DNA from: Rhizophagus irregularis
Taxonomy: Eukaryota
Assembly (NCBI RefSeq): GCF_026210795.1
Contig: NC_089429.1
Coordinates: forward strand, 1,798,001-1,862,000
Direction: 5' to 3'
Length of the DNA: 64,000 nt
In this document: positions 5,302 through 39,252 of the stretch, piece by piece
Layout: every line of letters starts with the position of its first letter
Position numbering within the stretch: position 1 is the stretch's first letter
Translations under genes and position numbers: made by a program
The notes under the pieces: generated by a model
Seen by the model: only the letters and a program-made list of their open reading frames with translations
Database searches by the model: none
What the model was told of the DNA's origin: nothing

Positions 5302-6737
5302 AAGGTAATATAAAATTGATTTTTTTAGCTTTATTTATAAAATCTTCAATATAAAAAATATAAAAGGCCATTTTTTTTAATAGCATTTCATAGTAAATCA
5401 TATGATTTTAGTGTTCCTTATAATAGTAAGTAATTATTAAAGTTATATTAAATATTTGCATCGCTTAATAATAATTGTTTATTGTTTTTATTTTTAGTTG
5501 ATGATTTTGGCAAATCAAGTAATCGGAATACATCAAACATAAGTAATATTATCAAAGGTAATTTATTATTAATTTTAAAAAAGAATAAAATGAATATTAT
5601 ATAAAAAATTTACCAATTGATATTTTAAATTTTAGATAGTAGCAAAAAATTATCCAAAGTATTTAAAAAATTTCAAAGAATGGCAAGTAAAAATTTAATA
5701 AATTAATTCTAATTTAATTTAATAATAAAATAACATTTATTAAATTTGATTTGTTATAATAATTTTAATAATCACAGATAATCATAATAAAAAACATTGC
5801 TAACACAAAATCTTAATAATGAAGGTAAGCAAATTATCTATTGAGCTCCTTTTTAGATAATAAATTAACATTTTTTACCTTTGTTTCTATAGATGAAGAT
5901 GAAGTATATAATAATCCAATTCTTCATTCAGAGGAACAAGATGAATTTGAAATTCCTGATGGTTCGTCTATTCTTTCTATTCTTTAATATAAAATAATAA
6001 AATTTTTTATTTATTAATTAATTTATTTTGATAAGAATATCAGTCAATTATTGAATTATTTAAACACCAAGATTATATTATTAGGTAGTTTCTTAGTTTG
6101 TAATTTAAATAATTCTTTTTTTTTTGTATATGTATTAGAACTTATTCATTTATTAAATAAAAATACAAATTTATTATATATTATATACTACAAAATATTA
6201 TATGAACGTCGTATGATAAATTAATTTTAAGTATTAATATGCTATTTACTTAATAAGTATTTTAATTAAAAAAAATTGATAATCTAACAAATAATATAAA
6301 TTACTCATTCATTTCTAAAACATTTTCGCATCTTTTGCATAATTCACTTTCTGTGTGTGCATTATAATTCCAACATCTATAAATAAAGAAGCCCTTTTAA
6401 TTATAATCTTACAAATCCTATCAGATAAATCAACTTCATTAGTATATATCAAAGTATTATTTGAACAATTCTCAATCATTTCCGAAGACGAAGATATTGC
6501 TGCATTTGAAGTTGTAAAAAATAGATGGCTATCCACATCAGAGAAGATATTCTTAGTTTATTATTCCTCCATGTTCAAGATTATTTAATCAAAACAAAAG
6601 GAGACATAAAGAAAAGAGGTATCGGGTGAAAGAAAATATTCTTCAACCTTACAAAGTTTCAGAATGCCAGAAAAGGGAATTTATAATGAATATATTTTCC
6701 ATAAAGTAGTAATAAAATTTGAACCCTAAAAGAAAGC

Positions 6738-7800
6738 CTAATAAAGAGAAGACCTAGGCAGAGGAGATAAACCTAAAAAAAAAGATGAAAAAAAAATAAG
6801 ATGAACACTTCCAACCCACATACTACTTAAAGGAGGACGTAAAGAAAAAGGCCTAAAAAAAGACCTAATGAAGAGAAGACCTAGACAGAGAGAGGATAAA
6901 TCTAAAAAAAAAGATGACAAAAAAAAAAAATGATAAAACACCACACTCCCAAACCCACACTCCCACGCACCACACACTCCCACGCACCACTCCCAACCCA
7001 CACTCCCTCACTCCCTCACTCCACACTCCTACACTCCCCAACCCATACTCCCAACCCATATACCTAAAGGAGGATGTAAAGAAAAAGGCCTAAAAAAAGG
7101 CCTAATGAAGAGAAGACCTAGACAGAGAGAAGATAGAACTAAAAAAAAGTTGACGAAAAAAAATTAAATAAAACACCACACTCCCAAACCCACACTCCCA
7201 CGCACCACACACTCCCACGCACCACTCCCAACCCACACTCCCTCACTCCCTCACTCCACACTCCTACACTCCCCAACCCATACTCCCAACCCATATACCT
7301 AAAGGAGGATGTAAAGAAAAAGGCCTAAAAAAAGGCCTAATGAAGAGAAGACCTAGACAGAGAGAAGATAGAACTAAAAAAAAGTTGACGAAAAAAAATT
7401 AAATAAAACACCACACTCCCAAACCCACACTCCCACACACCACTCCCACACTCCCAACCCACACTTTCAACCCACATACCTAAAGGAGGAAGAAAAGGCC
7501 TAAAAAAGACCTAATAAAGAGAAGACCTAGACAGAGAGAAGATAGTCCTAAAAAAAAAAAGATGACGAAAAAATTAAAATAAAACACCACACACCCAAAC
7601 CCACCACGCTCCCACACTCACAACACTCACAACCCACACTCCTACACTCCCAACACTCCCAACACTCCCAACCCACACTCCCACACTCCCACACTCCCAA
7701 CCCACATACCTAAAGGAGGACGCAAAGAAAAAGGCCTGAAAGAAAACCTAATGAAGAGAAGACCTAGACAGAGAGAAGATAGACCTAAAAAAAAAGATGA
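6738..7800 (-). repeat. Tandem array of ~6 units (127-237 bp) with variable CCCACACT/ACTCCC micro-repeat tracts
   Basis: Conserved block ctaat(a/g)aagagaagacctag starts at ~6738, 6865, 7102, 7337, 7511 and 7747. Units differ mainly in the number of C/A-rich micro-repeats. Confidence 0.9.
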
Positions 7801-7899
7801 CAAAACAGTATATATTGTGTGTATATGTATATATAATATTGTTACTGAACTAGGAAAGAATAGCAGATAATCGCTTTATTAATTATTTTTATTTATCTA

Positions 7900-8850
7900 C
7901 AGTGGCCTACAAAAAGTCAGTGAGTACCTGTAAAATACAATAATCATTATGCAAATATGCTCTAATGTAAAGTTTTTTTTTTATTAATTGACCCACCTTT
8001 TGTATTATAAGTAAAGTTGATCACCAAGTTGAATTACACCTACTCTGAAAATTACACGAACTTCTAATTAAAATTGATTTTTGTATTTAAAATTTATTGG
8101 AAAAAAATTAGATTTTTAATAGAAATCTTTTAGTATTAATACAACGATAAACTAACTTATTTGATCATATTTTATTTTTTAAATAAATTATTTTCCATAA
8201 TTTATAACATTATATGAAGTATCTATCATCAGTATTAACGCAATGATCAGCAAGTTACAACATTTTTACTGGCATTTGCCGATCATTTGTAGATCACTAC
8301 CAGATTATTTACCGGAATTTAGCAAAACTAGTGCATTAAATTTAGCCAAATTTTTTTTGTATGAATGTTGGAAATTTTGACTATTTGTTTCTAACTTTTT
8401 TATTATAATCATAATATAAGATCATGATTTATTCTTTATTTAACAATTTACAAATAATTAATAGATGCCAAATATCTTTGCCAAACGTGTGTAACTTGCT
8501 AATTATTTTGTTAATGTTGATGATACTTCGTGATCATTATGCTGTAAATTATGACAAATAATTTTATTAAAAAAAAATTAAGTGTTTTAAAGCAAATATT
8601 TTAATGCTAAATTATTACCATAGATTTCCATTAAAATATCTAAATATTTTAATAAATTTCAAAATATAACAATTAATTTTAATCAGAAATTCATGTAATT
8701 TTCAGAGTAAGCATAATTCAACTTGGTAATCAACTTAACTTATAATACAAAAGGTGAGTCAATTAATAAAAAAAAAACTTTACATTGGAGCATATTTGTG
8801 TAATGATTATTATATTTTACGGGTACTCACTGACTTTTTGTAGGCCACTG
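7900..8850. mobile_element. Tc1/mariner-type MITE / fold-back element with TA TSD
   Basis: TA|CAGTGGCCTACAAAAAGTCAGTGAGTAC ... GTACTCACTGACTTTTTGTAGGCCACTG|TA (TA at 7898-7899 and 8851-8852). Inverted similarity continues inward for roughly 350-370 bp per arm. Confidence 0.92.
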
Positions 8851-10949
8851 TATAAGGCGTGGCTATATACAAATCACGTGATATAATCTTATATTTACTA
8901 AGGAGTGAATAAATTATAATCCCGTCTCGCGTCCCATTCAAAATTCCTAATAAGCATATTAAAAAATAAAAAATTTTTATTGAAAAGCAAGAAAAAAAAT
9001 ATTTTAGATCATGTAATAATGTTATAACAATTAATATTTTTATTGGTATGTAATAATTTGTATGTTTCACAAGAATTAACGTTTTTTTATTTGTAAAAAT
9101 TAAAATTTTTTATATTAATAATTTTAATAATTTTAATAATTTTAATAATAATACTTTAATAAATTATTATTAAATGTCATTATAAATAATAGTTATGGGG
9201 TAAAATATCGGTAACCCCGAATATCAGTCCGTCAAAATCTTATTAGACTGACCAATAATATAATGATATAATTTTTTTATTTTTAATATGCTGATTAAAA
9301 TTTAATAATATTAGTGTCGGGAAATGTCGTGGCTCGTGACTTTGAATTTTTGTGAAACGTCAGGTTTATTATAATGGGATCGGGAATTCGTAGTAAATCC
9401 GTAATAAGTAAGGTACGATGTGACAAACTTTTCCAGCGTAATCATGAAAATTGGCCAGAATTATGACATTTTACACTGTCGGAATAAATATATAATAAAA
9501 ATAAAAAAGTGTAGAATGTGATGCAGCGTGATGAATAATATGAATAGCGTGATTTATTAGCGTGATTTTATTACTCAGCAATATTAAATGAGTCTAAATT
9601 CTGGCGGGTATGATCTTATGTTCTTATGTAGATGGGTTCGTAACATACCTGCTGTAAATCTTGAAGTAATACAAAAAATTTTTTAAAATTGTTTTGGCCT
9701 GATTTGATTTGATTTCATTATGGTCTGAAATAATTATCGTACCGTAAAATTTTTAAGTGTACCTGATAAAAAAATACATAACAGCGCACTAAAATAACAA
9801 CGTAACTAAATACAGAATAACTCGAAATGAAGTTTCTCTGTTTCTGTTTGAAATTCTATTAGAGTATTTTTTCCAATAATATATACAATATTTCTTCAAC
9901 CGTAGTGTAGAAATCACTATTACGGCATTAACTTTTACCATTTTTCATAGTATTTATAGTATTTCCCAAGGGTAGTACAATTTATTATTATTATATTATT
10001 CACATATTTACTAAAATATTCCGGTTGAATAATATATATATATATATATAACAAGCTTTGTCTACAAGTACTAATATATCTAAATTGGAAATCGGAACCT
10101 TAAATTGTGATCAGTTAACACAGTTAACAATTTCCTACTATAATTGTACGCGACGCGTAACAGTCGTAGACTCATGATCATACGATCAATATATCCTCTT
10201 TCACTCATTCACTTGTCCTTTTTCCTTCTGCTTTTTGCTCACCTTTTCCCACTTTTGTCTGGATACCTCTTGGACAGAATTTCGAGATATATATATATGT
10301 ATAAGGTAAACTTACGAAATTCTGTTTTTTTTGTTTTTATTTATTTAGCAAAACGTTTACTAACGTTTCAGCTTTCTCTTTTGTAGGTTCTGGACGTTTC
10401 ATTTTGTCGTCTCTCCCCCTTCCTCTAGCCCATAATCAATTTTTATAACTTTCCTTTTCACCGTCTGTATATGGAAATATTTAAGTAGACTTCTAGGTAT
10501 TTTGTTGGGACCATATTAACTTTTTTTTGCAACACATTTCTTTTATTAAAATTAGTAAGAGTACATATATATAATATTTAGAATACTTAGAGATGCCAAC
10601 CAAATAAATAAACCTCGTTCTCTCTAGTCCTATGAAAAAACCGTATCTGGAGGAAGTGTGTGATCAACCAGACAAAATTACCAAACGGTCTACTCGCCCA
10701 GTTTTATCCCTCCTCTTTCCCATGGCCTTCCCTACAAAATGTAAATTAGTAAGTTTGTGAATTCTAAACTAATCAAGAACCCCTATGTTAAACACTAAGC
10801 TAAAAGCAAACGCGAGGGTCGTCAGTCCAAAATCCAGTCCCTCAATTCTGCATCCTAGTCATCACCATACCCCGCATAAAATTTGTTATCGGAAACTTTT
10901 TTATGTGAAATCACGTGACTTCGATTGCGAGATGCGACCCATTTATTGC

Positions 10950-11700
10950 TGTTTACTGTCTTCCTCCTTCTTTCCGTTCACCTTCCGTCTTTCTTTTCTC
11001 TTTCTCCTGCTCTCGCATCTCTCATCGCATTAATTCAAGCCACTGTATGGGCTCTCTGTCTTGGGTCTCTTTTCTCCTACCTCTTTCTCATCGGTCATAC
11101 AATTCTTCTTTGAGTCATTTTGTGAAATCGTCGTTCAACGTGGTGTATTCTTGCGAAATTTCACTTTATTCCGCTTTTATGACCTATCCTCAAGAAGTTG
11201 TTATGTTTCATAGCTCAGTCTTTCATCTGATCCAGGCTTCCTAGACCTTGTTCTTTGCTCAACGGTACAAAGTAATATGTTGCCATTCCATATCATTGGA
11301 AGTTGTTGTAAAGATCTCTTCCAGTTCTGTCAGCTTTACTTTTGCCTCTGCCATACCTTCAGATTCCTCGCTGAGCACTTGGTATCACACATACTCTATC
11401 TTTTTGGTCGCATGATAATCCTTTATGACCCCCACAACTTCTTCCGGCGCAATATTATCTTGTTTTTGAGTTTTGGTTGAGGCTTCAGCCTTAACTCTCC
11501 CGGTTTTTCATCAACCGAATCTGAATCCGAGTCTAAATCCTCTCCTAATTTCCAATTGATAATCATATCCACTATCACTTCTTCAGTTAAAGGTGTAGTT
11601 TTTTTGTATTTCTTGACCGCCATATTTGCTAACTCCATGTATATTCTATCAGGAGGTGTCAGTGGCGTAGAAATATTTGCCGAATGGTCAACTGGTGTTT
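10950..11700 (-). pseudogene. Degenerate coding relic of unknown family (probably repeat-associated)
   Basis: GC-richer, purine-rich minus strand with ORF fragment MELANMAVKKYKKTTPLTEEVIVDMIINWKLGEDLDSDSD... broken by stops. No recognisable domain. Confidence 0.35.
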
Positions 11701-11812
11701 GCGTATTAGGTGTTTTTGTCTTCTACCTTTTACCTTCTTCCAAGCCCTACCATTTCTGTATATCATTTTGAACTTCTAAATGTCTGGAAAGTAGTCTTTT
11801 GGGTATTTCGAT

Positions 11813-12783
11813 GGAGCAGCATGATGCTATACATGGGTGGGAGTATAGCGTGCTTACTTTGTAAGCCTGTGAGTACCAGCTTTTGCTGCAGTCTCATGGT
11901 AGGGCTGGTTGGGAACTTGGAGCGGTATAGTACTATGCGTGGGTTGGAGCATAGACGCTTACTTTTAGTAAGCTCGTGGGTACCAGTTTTTGCTGCAGTC
12001 CTGCGATAGGACCGAAGGTAAGTGCACTTTTTTTTGTTATTTTTCAGTTTTTTATTTTTTTTATGATTTTTTTTTATTTCTTCGTTATTTTTAGCTGGGT
12101 ATTTTATTGGAGCAGCATGATGCTATGCGTTGGGTGGGAGCATAGCATGCTTACTTTGTAAGCCTGTGAGTACCAGCTTTTGCTGCAGTCTCACAGTAGG
12201 GCTGGTTGGGAACTTGGAGCGGTATAGTACTATGCGAGGGTTAGAGCATAGACGCTTACTTTTAGTAAGCTCGTGGGTACCAGTTTTTGCTGCAGTCCTG
12301 CGATAGGACCGAAGGTAAGTGCACTTTTTTTTTATTTTTCGGTTTTTTTATTTTTTATTTTTTTATTTTTTTTTTTCTTCATTACATTTTTAGCTTTGGG
12401 TATTTCTTTTGGAGCAGCATGATGCTATGCGTTGGGTGGGAGCATAGTATGCTTACTTTGTAAGCCTGTGAGTACCAGCTTTTGCTGCAGTCTCGCAGTA
12501 GGGCTGCTGGACGAAAGGTAAGTGCACTTTTTTGTTATTTTCAGTTTTTCTTTTTATTTTTTTTATGATTTTTTTATTTCTTCATTATTATTAGCTTTGG
12601 GTATTTTTATTGGAGCAGCATGATACTATGCGTTGGGTGGGAGCATAGTGTGCTTATTTTGTAAGCCTGTGAGTACCAGCTATTGCTGCAGTCTCACAGT
12701 AGGGCTGCTGGACCAAAGGTAAGTGCACTTTTTGTTATTTTTCAGTTTTGCTTTTTATTTTTTTTATGATTTTTATTTCTTAG
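11813..12783 (+). ncRNA. Putative structured-RNA tandem array: six ~91-nt four-way-junction modules (A,B,A,B,A,A) separated by intron-like GTAAGT...TAG spacers
   Basis: Modules start at ~11817, 11923, 12113, 12220, 12415 and 12616. Stems: CAGC/GCTG (CGGT/ACCG in B), GCTATGC/GCATAGC (GCTATAC/GTATAGC in A1), GCTTAC/GTAAGC, CTGTGAG/CTCACAG, CAGC-TTTT-GCTG. Spacers at 12018-12094, 12315-12393, 12518-12594 and 12719-12783. The repeat itself is certain; RNA function is inferred. Confidence 0.6.
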
Positions 12784-14039
12784 TGCGCTTCTTAGGAAGT
12801 CCCTTGTGTCAGGGCCATAGTACTAAAATATATCTGAAAATAAAGATATTGAGAGATGTTATTAAGAAATTTTATTATAAATCTTGATCTTGAAAGCAAT
12901 AACATCTTAAAAAAAATATATAAATAAATACTATTTAATTATTATAATAGAAATTACAGAAATTATTTTGAAAAACTACATTATACTGTACCATTGAAAA
13001 TAATTTTCGTTATATAATATTTGAAATATGTGTAATATTGGAAATTTGATTGTGAATATTATATTATTTTTTCTTACATTCTATTAAACAAATAATCACC
13101 TATGTTAATGTGATCCCAAAATTTTCATTTTCCATAGGCGCAGTGTGATGGAAGATATTACATGATCTCCTGCTATGCTTCAAACAATTATGACTAACAA
13201 CAAGTAACTCTGTAAATCAATGTGTAGAAAAATTATTGTATCAAGACTTTAAATACATAGATGGAAACAAATTACAATAAAATCTTTGAAACAATTAGAT
13301 AAACTCTGTGAACCTTTACAATACGCGTCTAAAAATATTTTGATTTGTATTATGACATAATTTTTTTTGTTTTCAATAATATAAAAATACAATTAAATGT
13401 TTTAAACTTTTTATTGAATTTGTATTATACGTTGATACAGTATATGATAGCTTATCTGATTACATATAGTACTCATTGAAGAAAAATTCATGATTTTATT
13501 TAATAATTAAAGATCACTTTTATAATTAACGAAAATTCTAACATAATTTTTGGTCACAAAAAATTTTGTGACTTGAATTTTAATTGAGTCAGAAATCAGT
13601 ATTAATAATTTTGATTCACACGTCCTGGTTGTCAGCTTTACCTGGTTCGAAGATACCACGGTATTAATTTTTTTTTTCATTATTAAATAAAGAATAAAAT
13701 AATAAAAAATTTAGATTAAACTAACTTATAGCTAGCACCAATTCTACTATCCGTTTCTATATGTCCAACCCTATTAAACAACCGTAAATGGAAAGTTCAG
13801 GCTAACTTTATGGCATTAACCTTACACGTAATAAAGCAGTAAGCTAAGATTCCGAATCGATAGACTCCACAAAATCCGAAAAATGGCAATACTAAGACAA
13901 GTCTCGGGTTATTGAACGCTGCATTCGAAGACACGTAAAAAATTGATAATTCAATTCTTTAAATTTTAGTGGACGTAAAACATGGAATAAAATATTTAAA
14001 CCTGATGATTTCAATAGAATAAATAAATCCTGTTTAACC

Positions 14040-31261: not shown

Positions 31262-31450
31262 ATTAAGCGAAAAGTAAGAAGAAAGAAAAAGGATTCCGAA
31301 ATTAGAAATTACGTCAAAATATGAAGTAGGGATTAGTTATGTATCATATGATTTGTACATATGATCTACTTTGCTATAAAAAAAAAAAACTCTCTCCTGC
31401 ATAAATCGATTTTCATAAGAATCCGCAGCAAAATAAAATTTACTAGAAAT

Positions 31451-33565
31451 ATGGGTATAACACCGTCAAGAGAAGACTTCGTAGCCCTAGAAGGATACGC
31501 AAAAAAAAGCGAAGAAGAGCGCAGAGCAATAATACAAAACGCGGGAATGGAAATAACCGATAACGACAAAGAGATAGCACAATTTTTGGGTTCAGAAGAC
31601 GAAATACTAGGTTGTTTTATTAGGGGAATAATCACGATATGCTTAAGACACTTTAACAACCAAAGAACAAAAGAATTTAACGAATACATAGAAGATTACA
31701 AGACAGCAACAAACGATATGATACAACAAAAAACTGTAGAAATGAACGAATGGGCCCGACTAAAAGAAGAACAATGGAACATCAAAGAAGAATATTATTT
31801 CAAAAATACATCGATAAAAGCGCACCAAATACAAACCGAACTAGGAGCGGTAGATAACGAAGACAGGATAAGGATAGAAAAACAGGAAAAAGAGAAAATT
31901 ATGAATGAATGTAGAAAGATAACTATGAACAACCTCGACGAGGACAGCGACAAAGACGAAGAGATAATTCAACATACGTGGGAAATAGAAAGCAACACAC
32001 CCAGTGAAGAATCATGGGACGAAGGGAAAATGAACCAAAAATACCACGTTTACAACAATGCATCACACCAGACAAATGAAAACACCAATAATACTTCGAG
32101 AATGCAGGTCGAGAATAAAAATAGAAATTTTACAAAATCAAGAGACCAATCATTAACAATGGCGATCACTGCCGATCACAACATGGGAGAAAAATCTAAT
32201 AAAAGTAAAGAGTCCGTGCATCAACCAAAATCGGAAAAAGATCTGAAATATTTCGCAGGACTTTTTACAGTCCAAATAAGGGATGGACAAACTGACCAAT
32301 CGATAATAGATTATCTCAACACCAATAAAATTTTAGAATATCACGTGAACACACTAGGTAGAACTACTCATCACGGCAACGAATACACGTACTTAGGCTT
32401 TTTCACAGAAGCAGCGAAAAACGATTTTATAAACGACGGAAGAATATTGGGAACGATAGGAAAATTCAGAGATCTAGAATGGTTAAATAAATTGAACAAA
32501 ACAATCATCATATCAGCAACCGGAATAGACGGAGAAAACACAGATATCAACGAAGTTATCCAAGCAATAGAAGACAAATTAGGTAAACTCAAAAACGTAA
32601 CACAAAAAACAGGAAATGGAAAATGGATAAGTATGAAACTAGAAATGGACATTAAATGTACAGAGGACGAACTATTTAACACCTGGGGAGTCCTAGTCAA
32701 AAACAAAATGATAAAAATCGAACCAATGAATTACAAACATCATATAACCAAACAACGAGGAAGAATTATGGCGGAAATACTCGATATACCTAACGAAATC
32801 GATGAAACAACATTCTCAAAAATACTTAACACTACCAACGCAAGATATTGGTTCAAAACCAACAACAGGATGAAAGGAACATACAACATGAAAATATACT
32901 TCAACAACGATGAAGACAGAAAACAAGCAATTAACAAAAAAATCAAAATCGACGGAAAGATTTTTACTTGGTTTTTTCGGACTGGACCGGGAAGACAGAA
33001 TAATTTTCGTAATGAAAGAAGAAATGATAATGGATTTGGCAAACGATTTCAACAAGAAATGTACGATGGAAGAAAGACCGGAAGATCCAGATGTAATATA
33101 TGCAAAAGGAATAACCACATCACAGACGAATGTTATTTCAACAATAGAAACAGAACACATGAAAACAGAAGAAACTGGAACGACAACTGGAATGAAACAT
33201 ATAGATATAGAAAAGGTAGATACGACAATGAAGGAAAGTTCAGATATGACACGCAACAACAACAATTCAGTGATCACGACGATAACAGATACAACGCCTA
33301 CACCAACAGAGGAAAACAAATACACTCAAGAAGAAGATTCAACAACAACATTAACAGAGAAAATGGCAGAGATGAGACTAGAGGAAACCGACAAAGTTTT
33401 TACCACCAACAACAAAGATATAATGGATACAATAACCATAACAACAACGGTCACAACACAGAGAGATACAACGAGAATGGAAAGAACAACTACAACGGAT
33501 ACAACAGAGATTGGAATGAAGGAAACAGTTCCAATGATAGGCGTCGAATGGCTAGACGCTATTGA
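31451..33565 (+). CDS. LINE ORF1 (gag-like nucleic-acid-binding protein)
   Basis: CCHC knuckle CNICKRNNHITDEC, RRM-like region and N/R/G/Y-rich tail. First ATG inside the element is 31451. Confidence 0.85.
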   Translation: MGITPSREDFVALEGYAKKSEEERRAIIQNAGMEITDNDKEIAQFLGSEDEILGCFIRGIITICLRHFNNQRTKEFNEYIEDYKTATNDMIQQKTVEMNEWARLKEEQWNIKEEYYFKNTSIKAHQIQTELGAVDNEDRIRIEKQEKEKIMNECRKITMNNLDEDSDKDEEIIQHTWEIESNTPSEESWDEGKMNQKYHVYNNASHQTNENTNNTSRMQVENKNRNFTKSRDQSLTMAITADHNMGEKSNKSKESVHQPKSEKDLKYFAGLFTVQIRDGQTDQSIIDYLNTNKILEYHVNTLGRTTHHGNEYTYLGFFTEAAKNDFINDGRILGTIGKFRDLEWLNKLNKTIIISATGIDGENTDINEVIQAIEDKLGKLKNVTQKTGNGKWISMKLEMDIKCTEDELFNTWGVLVKNKMIKIEPMNYKHHITKQRGRIMAEILDIPNEIDETTFSKILNTTNARYWFKTNNRMKGTYNMKIYFNNDEDRKQAINKKIKIDGKIFTWFFRTGPGRQNNFRNERRNDNGFGKRFQQEMYDGRKTGRSRCNICKRNNHITDECYFNNRNRTHENRRNWNDNWNETYRYRKGRYDNEGKFRYDTQQQQFSDHDDNRYNAYTNRGKQIHSRRRFNNNINRENGRDETRGNRQSFYHQQQRYNGYNNHNNNGHNTERYNENGKNNYNGYNRDWNEGNSSNDRRRMARRY

Positions 33566-33624
33566 CCGGCAACTATACCAAAACACAACAACAGAAGAAG
33601 AAAATGAAGAAAAAAGAGGCGTAG

Positions 33625-36600
33625 GTGAAGAAAATTTTAAAAGAGAACGAAGAGGAAAACATCACAACAAATAAAACAAAAAAAGGAAAAACTTACATAA
33701 AACAAAAACAACAAGAAAATAATAAGAAAAAAGAAAAACATAACAAACTAAAAATAGGTTGTATAAACGTAAGGGGGATGAACGATACAAAAAAACAAGG
33801 CGATATAAGAAAATTTTTATCAAAAGAAAACTGGGATATAGCAATAATTAATGAAACTAAACTAAAAGAAGCAAAAGGTAAATATATATACAAAGGCTGG
33901 GATAAATACAAATGCATTAACAGTAGCTACAACAACGAAAACAACAAGAATGGAATAATAATAATGATAAGAAGAGATATCTACGATAGAGGATATAAGA
34001 TAGAAACAATCAACGGTCACGTGATTAAATTCGACTTATTATTCAAAGGAAATCAGAAAAACATAAGAATCATAGGAATATATAATCCAAATAACGACAA
34101 ACCAACTACGAATAACATAGAAAAACATTTGGCAAAATGGATGAACGAAGCAATAAACCTAGAATATGAAACGATAATTTTGGGAGATTTCAATGAATCA
34201 GCCAATAACAAGAAAAAATTAAAACCGTTAACAAACACAATCAAGAATCATGGCTTACAAGACATTCACGAAAGTTTAACAGTAGCGGAAGATAGACTAG
34301 ACACTTGGAAGAGTGGAGACAATTCATCCAGGATAGATTTTATTTTCGCAAGCGAAGGCTTTCAAGAAAGTATTATAAGTCATGAGATACTAGAAATAGA
34401 AGACTTCGACACAGATCACAAAGCACTAACAGTTAAAATAGAAATTAAAGAAAAATTAGGAATAAACAAACCCGGATTTATGAAAGAAATAAAAAAGGAA
34501 ATAAGACACATAAAATTAGAACAAGAAGATTGGAAAGAAATAGCAGAAGAAGTAGAAACAAGATTAGAAACGTTAGACCAGAATACAACACAACATTTAA
34601 ATCGAGAAATGATATGGAAAACGATAGTAGATATATACGACGAAGAAAAGAATAGACAACTAATTAAAATCAGAAAAAGAAAAGAAGATTCAAAAAAAGA
34701 TAGAGACGAAAGTTTAATGAAAACAAACGAAGAAAGATTAGAGGAATTAATCACAGAATACGAAAACTTAGAAAAAATTGATACAATAGAACATGGAATC
34801 AGTAAGATAACAGATAAAGTTATAAAGAAATTATGGCAAGATAGAAAAGCCTTTCAATACAAATATAATTTCAAAGAATTCGAAGAAACAATAATAATAG
34901 AGCAATGGGGAACAACGGACACAGGTAAACACAACGCGGTAAAACTAGGAAAATTAATCAACATACATGATAGACTCGAAAAAAACATTGAATACGGAAT
35001 CACGATAGATAAACTAAGAAAATATAGAAACCGCAAAGATTTAAAAGAAAGAAGAACAAAAAGAGCAGAAATTATGAGAAGCCTATATGTGGAAATTAAT
35101 AGCCTGAACATAGAAATAAACATAAGAAAACGCGAAACGTACCTAGAAGAAGACATAGGAAAAATGTTAAATAGAATTTTAGAAAAAAAGAGAGAGAAAA
35201 TTAATATGACAGGATTAGTAATAAAAGAGAATGGAAGAATCACGATAGAAAAAGACAAAAAAAAGATAAAAGATAAAGTATTAAAACATAACAAAGATTG
35301 GACAAAGAAAAGAGAAATAGACCTAGATGAACTAGAATATGATCCGGAGTGGAGAGAGATCTATACACCTAATGAAGATATAAACGAAAATATTTACAAA
35401 AATCTAATGACACCGATAAGGATGGAAGAACTAGAAAGGGTATTACAAAACCTAAAAACAAATAAAGCACCAGGATCAAGTGGTATAACTTACGACTTTT
35501 GGAAGAAAAGCGGAAACCTAACGAGGAATTTATTATTAAACATCTTTAACGACAGCATGGCCAAAGAGAACGTAACGGATGAATGGAAAAAAGGATTTAT
35601 ATATCCGATAAATAAAACTTCACGTTCAAATTGGAATCAAGATTTAAATTTGACGAGACCGATAGTGCTCTTAGAAACGGCAAGAAAAATTTGGTTTAAA
35701 ATATTGGTAAATAGATTAGGCGAAATTTTAACAAAAGAACAGATTTTGACAAATACGAATTTTGCAGCACTAAAAAACGAAAGCACCCTAGAGCCAATAA
35801 AAATCATCCAAGCAATAATAGAAGACGCTAATAATTACAAAAAAGAAGCATGGATACTATTGATGGATATATCCAAAGCTTACGATTCAGTAAATACAAC
35901 AATGCTAAAAAGAAGCCTGGAAAGAATTAAACTGCCACCAAATTTTATTAACATAGTTATGGACGTCAATTTAAATAGATTTAATAGGGTGCTAGTAAAC
36001 AACGAACTTACAGATGAATACCATGTAGAAGACGGTATCGACCAAGGTGAAGTATGGTCACCGATACTGTGGAGAATTTTTTATGACCCGCTTTTAAGTA
36101 GATTAAATGAAATGAAAGAGGAGACAGGTTACAACTTTTACGAGGAAAAATTAATCGATAATAATAAAAAAGATAAAGAAATACTTGAAATATCGATTAA
36201 CGTTACGGCATTTATGGACGATACAACGCTTATCAGTAAAAATAAAAAACAATTAGAAAAAATGATTGAGATATGTCATCAATTTTTTAATATAAATGAC
36301 ATAAAAGCAAACGTATCGAAATATGAACTTATAAAAATAAATAATGATAAAGAAGAACTTTTAATTAAAGGAGAATCAATCACAAAAACAAATAGTGAAG
36401 AAGGTAATCGTTACTTAGGAATATTTTTTAGATACGACAACAAAAGAGAAATATATAAAAAGAAAATAACATCAATAATCAATAACGCCTGCAATATATT
36501 TAATTGGAAAAGATTAAACGAAAAACAAATCATAGCGGTTTGGAATATAGTTATTATACCAAGGATAGAGTATCAGCTGGCAGCCATAGTCCTAAAGAAA

Positions 36601-39252
36601 TGGGAATGTGAGAAATTGATGACAAGAATAAATATGATAATCAAAAAAAGAGCTGGCCTAGCAAGATCAACTCCAAATTTTATAATTTATGATAAAGACA
36701 TTTTAGGTATAAAACATATTTACGACTTACAGATGGAAATGATATGTAAGAATTTGCTTTATCAGGCGAATGGAAATTACAAATTACAAATTTTATTTAA
36801 AATCAAAATGATCCAAGAACAGAAAAATATATGGACTTCGAGATGTCCTGGAGAAATAGAAATAACAAATTACAGGAAAAATAATTGGATCATATCAGCT
36901 CTAAAGGCGTTAAATAACGAAAAAATTAAAATATGTAATCATGAAATAAAAGATTTTAGAGAAAGCCACAGAATCAAAGGAGGAAAGACTGACCTAATTG
37001 ATTTAATGGAGTGTAAGGATTTTATAACAAGTACTCAATCAAGAAAAACAAAAAAAATAATGTTTTTAGAAGACATCCTAGAGGCAGACGGTATCACTTT
37101 ACTAAAATGGAAGCATTTATGTAAAGAAAGAGGAAAGAACACGAAAGGAAAATCGCCTAAATGGTTTAAAAAATTAGAATTGAAACTAATAGCAGACGAA
37201 AGTGGACAAGTAAGAAAAATAAGAAACGAGTTTATAGGACAAGCACAAAAAGAAAATATTCACATAAACTATTTTGATGAAGATGAAAAATCGGACAAAA
37301 ATAGTATTGTAACTTGGAACGACTACGGAGAATACCCGATATTTAGTATTAATAAAAAAAAATCGCAGAGTAAGAAATACAAAAGAATAGGAATACATTT
37401 AGAACTAGACGGAGATAGTTATGATCTAAACAATTCGCCTCAACTGAAGAAATGTCAAGGATGTTTTAGAAACATTAGTAAAAAAAAGGGGAGCAACGAA
37501 TGTCTAATATACATAGAAAACGAAATCTGTAGAAATTTAGATAGAAGAAAAGAAGAAGACTATATTAAACCGTACGAAACTCTAAATAATATTATAAAAA
37601 AGAATGAATGGTTACGAACGTATACAAAAGAAGATAAAAAAGATGAGTCATTTAACAAAAAAATAGAATTAATCGACAAAATAATTAACACGAATGACAA
37701 AAATTTTCTGGATATAATCAAAAACAGTATTTTCGAAGAAGAAGATAATTTGATTTCGATTACAAAACGAAGATTTTGTTTACTAATTAATACAAACAAA
37801 AAGAAATGGGAAATTAATAATAAAGGTAAAAGAGTTTATCGATATAATGTAGTATGGAAAATATTTGAACTGAATTACGAAGGAAAAGAGAGCGAGGAAG
37901 TGATCCTACTAGCGAGCTATGAATGTAATTACGAAAACGAATTCAAAATTATTCTTAGATGTATAATTTTAGGAATTATGATAATAAGTGAGAATAGCGA
38001 ATTAATTTTAGGAATAAACGAGAAAGTCAATAGACTAATAATTGAATTTACTAATAATTTTAGTAATAGGAAGAAAATAGATAGTGATTACTATTTAGAG
38101 CTTTTATTTTTAGAAAACTTTTTAGAAACAAATAATATTGAATTAATCGAAGGTAATGAGAAAATACAGAGAATCATAAAAGAAAAAAGAAAAGAGATGC
38201 AGGAAATGTTAAAGAACAATAAGATAGTAGATAAGATAAAATATAATTTTGAATTAATAGACGAAGGTTTAATTACGAATGAATATAATTTAATTTGGAA
38301 TAACAAATTAATAACAGGAGGATTCCGAGTTTGGAGGAAAGCAGTGACATTAGCAATTTGGAAAAATGAAATTTTAAACAGCGAGAGGTTAGAAGATCTA
38401 TTTATGTACAATTATAGAAACGAATTCGACTGGATCGCAAGTCTTGAATTTATTAGTAATAGAGTTAAATTTTCGCAAAGACAATGTGGTGATAGAGACA
38501 CAATTGAACGCTCATACAGAATCAAAAATTTACTTAAAGAATTGCCCACATATAACACTTTATTTAAAAGAAACACGAACAAAATTGATACAGATAAATG
38601 TATAAGATGTGGGAAAATCTTCACGGAAGATTGGGAACACATATGGATATGTGAAGATAACGATATATCAATTGATGAAATCATACGAGAATCACCATAT
38701 AATTTCGAAAAAGTTTTGGATAACTCTAACCAAACCGAAGAACTAAATATTTTAAGAAACTACAATTGTGAATTTATTAATATAATTGAAAGTCCTTCAA
38801 ATATTTTGTTGGGGAAAAGCAGAAAATGGGAATTATTAAGAGGGATTTATAATAATAAATTCAATGATTTATCTAAAGAGAAAAAAGTTAAAGATCTAAT
38901 CAAAAAGCTTTGGATGTTCACGTATGACGAGATTAAGAAACGAATATGGATACCACGATGCGAAGAAATTAAAAGATTAGAAGAAAGAGAACAAATTAAA
39001 AAAATAGATCTTAGAAGGAGAAGAGCCGCAAACGATGATATAGTAGAAGATGAAATCGACAAGGATATATTACCAGGAAAAATGAAAAAACAAAAAACAA
39101 AAGAAAATTTAGTTAAAAAAGAAAAAAATACAAATATAAATAGACAAATTAGCTTAGTAACGTTAGATAAATTGAAAGGATTAATCACAGAAGGTATTAA
39201 TATAGCTAAATCTTGGAATTCAACAATTAAATTAACGAACGCTCTAGTTTAG
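33625..39252 (+). CDS. LINE ORF2: AP endonuclease, reverse transcriptase, degenerate RNase H-like region and C-terminal zinc finger
   Basis: APE motifs INVRG, ETK, GDFN, SRIDFI, TDH. RT motifs KAPG, RPIVL, DISKAYDSV, GIDQG, AFMDD, YLG. C-terminal CIRC...HIWIC. Start uncertain (see findings). Confidence 0.95.
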   Translation: MKKILKENEEENITTNKTKKGKTYIKQKQQENNKKKEKHNKLKIGCINVRGMNDTKKQGDIRKFLSKENWDIAIINETKLKEAKGKYIYKGWDKYKCINSSYNNENNKNGIIIMIRRDIYDRGYKIETINGHVIKFDLLFKGNQKNIRIIGIYNPNNDKPTTNNIEKHLAKWMNEAINLEYETIILGDFNESANNKKKLKPLTNTIKNHGLQDIHESLTVAEDRLDTWKSGDNSSRIDFIFASEGFQESIISHEILEIEDFDTDHKALTVKIEIKEKLGINKPGFMKEIKKEIRHIKLEQEDWKEIAEEVETRLETLDQNTTQHLNREMIWKTIVDIYDEEKNRQLIKIRKRKEDSKKDRDESLMKTNEERLEELITEYENLEKIDTIEHGISKITDKVIKKLWQDRKAFQYKYNFKEFEETIIIEQWGTTDTGKHNAVKLGKLINIHDRLEKNIEYGITIDKLRKYRNRKDLKERRTKRAEIMRSLYVEINSLNIEINIRKRETYLEEDIGKMLNRILEKKREKINMTGLVIKENGRITIEKDKKKIKDKVLKHNKDWTKKREIDLDELEYDPEWREIYTPNEDINENIYKNLMTPIRMEELERVLQNLKTNKAPGSSGITYDFWKKSGNLTRNLLLNIFNDSMAKENVTDEWKKGFIYPINKTSRSNWNQDLNLTRPIVLLETARKIWFKILVNRLGEILTKEQILTNTNFAALKNESTLEPIKIIQAIIEDANNYKKEAWILLMDISKAYDSVNTTMLKRSLERIKLPPNFINIVMDVNLNRFNRVLVNNELTDEYHVEDGIDQGEVWSPILWRIFYDPLLSRLNEMKEETGYNFYEEKLIDNNKKDKEILEISINVTAFMDDTTLISKNKKQLEKMIEICHQFFNINDIKANVSKYELIKINNDKEELLIKGESITKTNSEEGNRYLGIFFRYDNKREIYKKKITSIINNACNIFNWKRLNEKQIIAVWNIVIIPRIEYQLAAIVLKKWECEKLMTRINMIIKKRAGLARSTPNFIIYDKDILGIKHIYDLQMEMICKNLLYQANGNYKLQILFKIKMIQEQKNIWTSRCPGEIEITNYRKNNWIISALKALNNEKIKICNHEIKDFRESHRIKGGKTDLIDLMECKDFITSTQSRKTKKIMFLEDILEADGITLLKWKHLCKERGKNTKGKSPKWFKKLELKLIADESGQVRKIRNEFIGQAQKENIHINYFDEDEKSDKNSIVTWNDYGEYPIFSINKKKSQSKKYKRIGIHLELDGDSYDLNNSPQLKKCQGCFRNISKKKGSNECLIYIENEICRNLDRRKEEDYIKPYETLNNIIKKNEWLRTYTKEDKKDESFNKKIELIDKIINTNDKNFLDIIKNSIFEEEDNLISITKRRFCLLINTNKKKWEINNKGKRVYRYNVVWKIFELNYEGKESEEVILLASYECNYENEFKIILRCIILGIMIISENSELILGINEKVNRLIIEFTNNFSNRKKIDSDYYLELLFLENFLETNNIELIEGNEKIQRIIKEKRKEMQEMLKNNKIVDKIKYNFELIDEGLITNEYNLIWNNKLITGGFRVWRKAVTLAIWKNEILNSERLEDLFMYNYRNEFDWIASLEFISNRVKFSQRQCGDRDTIERSYRIKNLLKELPTYNTLFKRNTNKIDTDKCIRCGKIFTEDWEHIWICEDNDISIDEIIRESPYNFEKVLDNSNQTEELNILRNYNCEFINIIESPSNILLGKSRKWELLRGIYNNKFNDLSKEKKVKDLIKKLWMFTYDEIKKRIWIPRCEEIKRLEEREQIKKIDLRRRRAANDDIVEDEIDKDILPGKMKKQKTKENLVKKEKNTNINRQISLVTLDKLKGLITEGINIAKSWNSTIKLTNALV

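Follow-up and report, generated by a model that had tools for sequence, protein, structure and literature searches.

The window analysed here, a 64-kb stretch of the Rhizophagus irregularis genome, contains an array of short tandem modules whose four-way-junction fold is real and is kept by selection on the plus strand. The modules apparently form an undescribed family of structured RNAs in fungal repeat arrays. New conserved RNA folds are rare in eukaryotes; one fungal RNA-structure screen is confined to Ascomycota (PMC8216456), and another never names Glomeromycota in its main text (PMC5640933). Uncharacterised repeats are put at about 24% of the R. irregularis genome (PMC8647823), and the present finding indicates that some uncharacterised repeat DNA can carry selected RNA structure.

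Layout of the array and its four-way junction

The array, at 11813-12817, consists of six modules of about 92 nt, of types A and B, and a broken seventh of type C (Table 1). Its order is A-B-spacer-A-B-spacer-A-spacer-A-spacer, followed by the 3' half of type C. Each module runs through GGAG, P1, AUR, P2 with a purine-rich loop, P3, P4, UAGR and the returning strand of P1. The six modules and their P1-P4 helices, first predicted from the letters alone, were confirmed, and five of the six plus-strand segments fold on their own into the four-way junction; the segment for the sixth, B1, ended within P1, and when its ends are complete the mean probability of its consensus pairs is 0.76. The linker described as TAGG is present, but its place is within the junction, where it connects P4 to the 3' strand of P1, and it reads TAGA in 2 of 15 modules. 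The TAC/CAGT loop, claimed to be invariant, is absent from type C (4 of 15 modules), and T can replace its first C in reads. Where the type C module of the window is broken, other copies in the sequencing runs carry intact GTGG-TAGG letters at the place of 12809-12810, and a module covariance model found no further modules in the window. Coding DNA was considered and rejected for the array: stops occur in every plus-strand frame, and the few stop-free stretches of 99-119 residues resemble repeat translation.

Table 1. Positions in the window of the array, its spacers and the upstream leader
Feature	Position	Strand	Remarks
Multicopy leader	10306..10502	+	About 13-fold depth at 10333-10554
Leader intron	10306-10386	+	Canonical GT...TACTAAC...AG
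Module A1	11813..11907 (P1 11817-11907)	+	GGAG leader, P1 CAGC/GCTG, AUG, P2 with G-rich loop, P3, P4 with TAC/CAGT loop, UAGG
Module B1	11919..12014 (P1 11923-12014)	+	P1 CGGT/ACCG, P4 TCGTGGG/CCTGCGA
Spacer 1	12018..12094	+	77 nt, GT...AG, 69% T, no CTRAY; RNA reads span it unspliced
Module A2	12109..12204 (P1 12113-12204)	+	
Module B2	12216..12311 (P1 12220-12311)	+	
Spacer 2	12315..12393	+	79 nt, GT...AG, no CTRAY
Module A3	12411..12508 (P1 12415-12506)	+	P1 lengthened to 6 bp
Spacer 3	12518..12594	+	77 nt, GT...AG, no CTRAY
Module A4	12612..12709 (P1 12616-12707)	+	P1 lengthened to 6 bp
Spacer 4	12719..12783	+	65 nt, GT...AG, no CTRAY
Broken type C module, 3' half, short P4	12781..12817	+	Alignment to L001, 0/300 shuffles

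Because single modules reach stability z-scores of only -1.0 to -2.5, the evidence for the fold is covariation rather than stability. With further copies collected and a covariance model built, as the original prediction had proposed, covariation holds over an alignment of 15 modules (six from the window and nine from three metagenome contigs, L001-L003) that covers 30 pairs and 420 pair cells. Pairing is kept in 97.6% of these cells, the compensatory swaps in P1, P2 and P4 are as first described, and changes on both sides occur in 17 of the 30 pairs, in all five helices. None of 500 shuffles reached the observed pairing or covariation, and slid registers pair in 23-44%; a measure of further pair types was not above shuffles (194/500). 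RNAalifold returned the same four-way junction with a covariation term of -3.5 kcal/mol, and in L002 one helix, P4b, is shifted yet intact. By the tree, about seven independent lineages stand behind the 15 modules, so the shuffle controls are not probabilities, and the consensus structure was drawn from the same sequences as those tested.

The direction of the remaining changes identifies the folded strand. In keeping with the plus-strand G-U wobbles of the original prediction, G-U pairs outnumber A-C pairs on that strand, by 13 to 0 in the six window copies and by 42 to 4 in the 420 cells of the 15 modules. Variants in other copies were drawn from the best 40 of 67 variant rows, of which 32 were scored and 8, in a spacer T-run, omitted. 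Among the variants listed, Watson-Crick pairs became G-U 12 times and A-C never (p=0.0002), from which we take the plus strand to be the one that folds; the remaining stem variants were 2 changes to other mismatches and 3 from G-U to Watson-Crick. Since the same transitions at unpaired sites split 9 to 6 among the variants listed (Fisher p=0.017), mutation bias alone is insufficient to account for the G-U excess.

Few unpaired positions are invariant in all 15 modules: the leader G.G, AU, two loop Gs, one U and UAG. P4 length and the P4 internal loop are dispensable across the family, and because type C has a short P4 without the internal loop, it is the junction that makes up the family core. 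No pseudoknot is conserved in the 15 modules, the best loop-loop pairing being 3 bp in 8 of them. The splice-donor word GUAAG lies in the 3' strand of P3, for example at 12158-12162, and likewise does not vary among the 15 modules, although part of it is poorly paired in type C; no joint from this GUAAG to the junction UAG occurs among the joints listed.

Relatives, copy number and genomic setting

The nine further modules came from one metagenome scan. Contigs L001 and L003 have the layout A-C, and L002 has A-B'-C and B'-C, so that three module types occur in the fixed order A-B-C. Modules range from 75 to 100 nt across the family (77-78 nt for type C with flanks), and, compared across types, contig modules share 55-92% identity with window modules or with one another. 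Spacer sequences are not alike between loci. In L002:118-858, an acceptor-like TAG stands ahead of each module cluster, several short GT-AG stretches unlike the window spacers lie between clusters, and TACTAAT follows each type C module. Part of the stretch is present in 20 of 24 listed sequencing runs from 12 studies with several organism labels. Three specific patterns gave no matches in viral contigs; among 120 viral loci found with a loose pattern, the 100 scored with the covariance model reached at best 12.7 bits, against 55-120 for true modules. Searches of prokaryote genomes gave 0 and 2 pattern matches, both due to chance.

Read depth suggests 13-22 copies or more in each genome. Module B lies at single-contig depths equivalent to about 13 (run X7) and 15-22 (run X14) near-identical copies relative to an inferred single-copy depth, and type A is deeper than module B in the sequencing runs. 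Run X6, at first taken for RNA, looks like DNA and contributed to the copy-number estimate alone; its depth is about 17 on unique flanks, about 230 on the leader at 10333-10554 and 290-2370 on the array, the last being an overstated sum over overlapping contigs. A metatranscriptome, X18, gave three contigs that cover T-rich stretches and part of one module; it did not enter the analysis.

Upstream, a joint between 10502 and 11811 in X6 connects the leader directly to module A in another copy. The intervening 10503-11810 is a single-copy insert of 1.3 kb in this window, bordered by a worn direct repeat (0/300 shuffles). It contains a broken minus-strand frame, a 99-residue fragment with no Pfam match and no longer homologue. 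We ruled out that the array is a leader of this adjoining frame, because the region of the fragment is single copy. CpG observed/expected exceeds 1 at 8750-10250, upstream of the leader, and falls to 0.3-0.7 over the arrays; the CpG-rich region is a possible promoter region.

The window has a G+C content of about 25%. Its tyrosine-kinase-like exons, several F-box/leucine-rich genes, a BACK-TLDc gene, an HMG box and a full LINE form a combination characteristic of Glomeromycota such as Rhizophagus. The LINE, at 31352-39252, is apparently intact, with an ORF1 of 737 residues and an ORF2 of 1875 residues that encodes an endonuclease-reverse transcriptase. Six F-box/leucine-rich paralogues lie in both orientations between 27190 and 63913, with a DNA-level likeness of 67-74%. 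A MITE-like element at 7898-8852 has inverted repeats of 360 bp that are 82% alike. A second tandem array, at 6725-7805 on the minus strand, has units of about 235 and about 174 nt that combine G-rich GGGAGTGT-type repeats with pyrimidine tracts; signals resembling splice donors and acceptors lie on one of its strands. The G-rich word of this array is similar to the P2 loop of the modules; kinship of this array with the module spacers was rejected as not significant (16-63/300 shuffles).

RNA reads and competing interpretations

Two poly(A) RNA runs, both unstranded, gave 744 and 700 reads over 10000-13300, nearly all of them mapping to the array and the majority derived from other copies. RNA from the family is supported because reads fall on the modules (570 and 532 on one A-B module pair) while depth is 0 at 10999-11664 and 12997-13300 in both runs. 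However, the reads peak on the spacers, in a pattern that would be expected from antisense RNA caught by A-rich tracts, or from DNA carry-over, and the zero depth of the flanks may reflect a strain that lacks this locus. Unstranded poly(A) data would miss a processed plus-strand RNA that carries no poly(A).

With these data in view, we tentatively read the array as the locus of a multicopy non-coding element whose tandem modules may well bind protein through their invariant junction strands. RNA polymerase II would transcribe the plus strand from the intron-bearing leader, giving a multimeric RNA in which each module is a candidate protein-binding domain that presents the junction strands AUR and UAGR together with the purine-rich loop. 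The domains could bind protein within the long RNA, as a scaffold or sponge, or could instead serve there as a handle for the element's copying machinery; as another option, they could be trimmed out as small stable RNAs closed by P1 and then bind protein. A protein-binding domain suits the family because unpaired invariant bases are few, arms vary, a pseudoknot is absent and units are repeated. Against this reading, in modules L1A and L3A, by exception, the minus strand folds slightly better (-32.9 versus -30.1 kcal/mol), and they carry an A-C pair; near-identical groups of 13-22 copies would fit a selfish element too.

An unlikely but serious alternative would make each module a new kind of self-cleaving ribozyme with its cut at the foot of P1, the arrays being retrozyme-like, non-autonomous elements that are processed to monomers and that a retroelement copies. 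Conservation of one fold over dispersed and tandem copies matches the layout described for non-LTR retrozymes (bioRxiv 10.64898/2026.07.22.740005), and in hatchet and HDV-like ribozymes the cut falls at the 5' end of P1 (PMC8495972). Read ends do gather at P1 feet: in run X23, molecules stop at 12615 in 10 of 45 and 6 of 28 cases and start at 11922 in 6 of 9, the consensus of 69 loose ends shows GGAG running into adapter at the position of 12112, and in both poly(A) runs inserts start at 12311-12314. These ends are a lead only, since reverse-transcriptase stops at folded RNA and priming beside helices explain them as well as cleavage does; the GGAG end is absent from X24, two of the end positions differ by one base, and on the A-B pair no pile-up reaching one-fifth of depth occurs among the read ends listed. 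The scarcity of invariant unpaired bases and the absence of a pseudoknot and of any known catalytic motif also count against cleavage, and the array showed neither a poly(A) tail nor a target duplication, nor a partner retroelement. In its boldest form, which is improbable, this alternative would have a compact four-way-junction ribozyme power the ongoing multiplication of retrozyme-like arrays in arbuscular mycorrhizal fungi. The original prediction made the product a spliced, multimeric structured RNA, and of this the multimeric plus-strand structure, under selection, has stood while the splicing has found no support. All four predicted spacers of the form AAG-GTAAGT, T-rich tract and TAG exist, each with a GT donor and a YAG acceptor, but their splicing is not supported in these unstranded data, because 256 and 167 reads in the two runs cross a spacer unspliced, no donor-to-acceptor joint occurs among those listed (11 over the array; the best 15 of 31 on the A-B pair) and a CTRAY branch site is lacking in all four, a degenerate site being possible, whereas the leader intron has TACTAAC. 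True introns, with a spliced concatemer or circle as product and with the P3 GUAAG and junction UAG perhaps as splice sites masked by the fold, are thus distinctly improbable. Donor and acceptor consensus does lie on the module strand in four loci, with donor-like signals, counted with the GUAAG inside P3, numbering 9 versus 0, 9 versus 1, 13 versus 0 and 7 versus 0 on the module and the other strand; acceptor-like TAGs precede module clusters in the window as in L002, the GUAAG is kept where its pairing is poor, and the spacer GT has no variants among those listed. On the other hand, L001, L003 and some X7 copies have no AG at the corresponding site.

It is also quite unlikely, if a little less so than true introns, that the fold acts in single-stranded DNA, as a recognition or termination structure of a rolling-circle element of the Helitron/Helentron type, with RNA as a by-product. 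DNA, too, tolerates G-T better than A-C, and copies are both tandem and dispersed. Elements of this type have TC...hairpin-CTRR termini and insert at A-T, or carry sub-terminal inverted repeats; at the end of type C, a short hairpin stands about 14 nt before CTAA in both the window and L002. Because the sequence past this CTAA is common to the tandem units of L002, CTAA is probably no terminus. In 13 of 15 modules RNA parameters define the fold better than DNA parameters do, and with DNA parameters it is weakened most in types B and C, which lose it (P1 probability 0.32-0.36 in B); about 10% wobble pairs and co-oriented splice signals likewise suit RNA. A neutral, palindrome-rich satellite whose structure is not selected is hardly credible and already largely refuted. 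The copies are related and single modules are only modestly more stable than shuffles, as such a satellite would allow, but it does not account for double changes in every helix, for the shifted but intact P4b or for the one-sided strand bias. The protein-binding reading stays the one we prefer, and the family could turn out to define a new class of ribozyme or a new family of small RNAs in the chief root symbionts of land plants, with type C as a 75-nt minimal form that is cheap to assay for cleavage or protein binding.

Comparison with known RNA families and elements

Rfam 15 covariance models at gathering score gave no matches in the window, as the original prediction would lead one to expect, and at E values up to 10 only seven low-scoring matches that lie in spacers or are due to chance; the L001-L003 modules had no match. 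No description of the family was found in literature listings, and it may sit in repeat libraries or supplements as an unclassified repeat. Searches that covered all but one file of the small-RNA and transposon supplements of PMC6399891, PMC9757828 and PMC8647823 found no module motifs; files of this kind may give coordinates instead of letters. Hatchet, U11, tRNA-His, SECIS, IRE1 sites, telomeric repeats and REP hairpins were considered, and none holds over the 15 modules by eye or in Rfam.

The mismatch to hammerhead, hairpin and tRNA consensus sequences that was first noted by eye was borne out when motif letters for ribozymes, snoRNAs, tRNAs and snRNAs were sought in the 15 modules. Like the hairpin ribozyme and four-way twister-sister, the modules join four helices at one junction and have an internal-loop arm that contains CAGUC. 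The hairpin ribozyme relies on G8 and G+1 in loop A and on A38 and C25 in loop B (PMC8216279). On the plus strand, RGAA occurs in 1 of 15 modules and the loop B motif in none. Unlike that ribozyme, the modules have at most one internal loop, which type C lacks, with GUAC rather than RGAA as the partner strand of loop A and no loop B. Twister-sister places its cleavage loop between P1 and P2 and has a conserved terminal loop (PMC8495972), whereas the internal loop of the modules is in P4, and the twister-sister loop motif occurs in none of the 15. The pseudoknots of HDV-like, twister and pistol ribozymes have no counterpart beyond the 3-bp loop-loop pairing noted above.

Among non-catalytic RNAs, box C of C/D snoRNAs occurs in 0 of 15 modules and CUGA in 2, and the H/ACA layout was ruled out, the modules being a closed four-way junction. 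The T-loop or B box and the A box of tRNAs and tRNA-derived SINEs occur in none, and ARAGORN found no tRNA. With U1 and U11 snRNA and the tRNA cloverleaf the modules share a closing helix and three hairpins, but they have different linker lengths and no T-loop, and the Sm site and U1-70K loop occur in 0 of 15, with no Rfam match to these snRNAs.

The closest likenesses are in layout. The hammerhead core consists of CUGANGA and GAAA on a three-way junction, and CUGANGA occurs in none of the 15 modules on either strand. Nevertheless, like non-LTR retrozymes and the pLTR arrays of Penelope-like elements, in which each unit carries a type I hammerhead, the array is intergenic, exists as monomers and multimers in tandem and dispersed copies, and has one conserved fold per unit; it differs in its four-way junction, in its three types in fixed order and in its U-rich spacers with splice signals. 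Polycistronic clusters of small non-coding RNAs include snoRNA clusters, nematode sbRNAs and Dictyostelium class I RNAs, and with these the modules share terminal-stem units, short linkers, a multigene family and a host transcript with intron signals. They differ from such clusters in having no C/D boxes, H/ACA layout or polymerase III boxes. The modules are a member of neither group, and it is the layout of non-LTR retrozymes or of polycistronic small-RNA clusters that they resemble.
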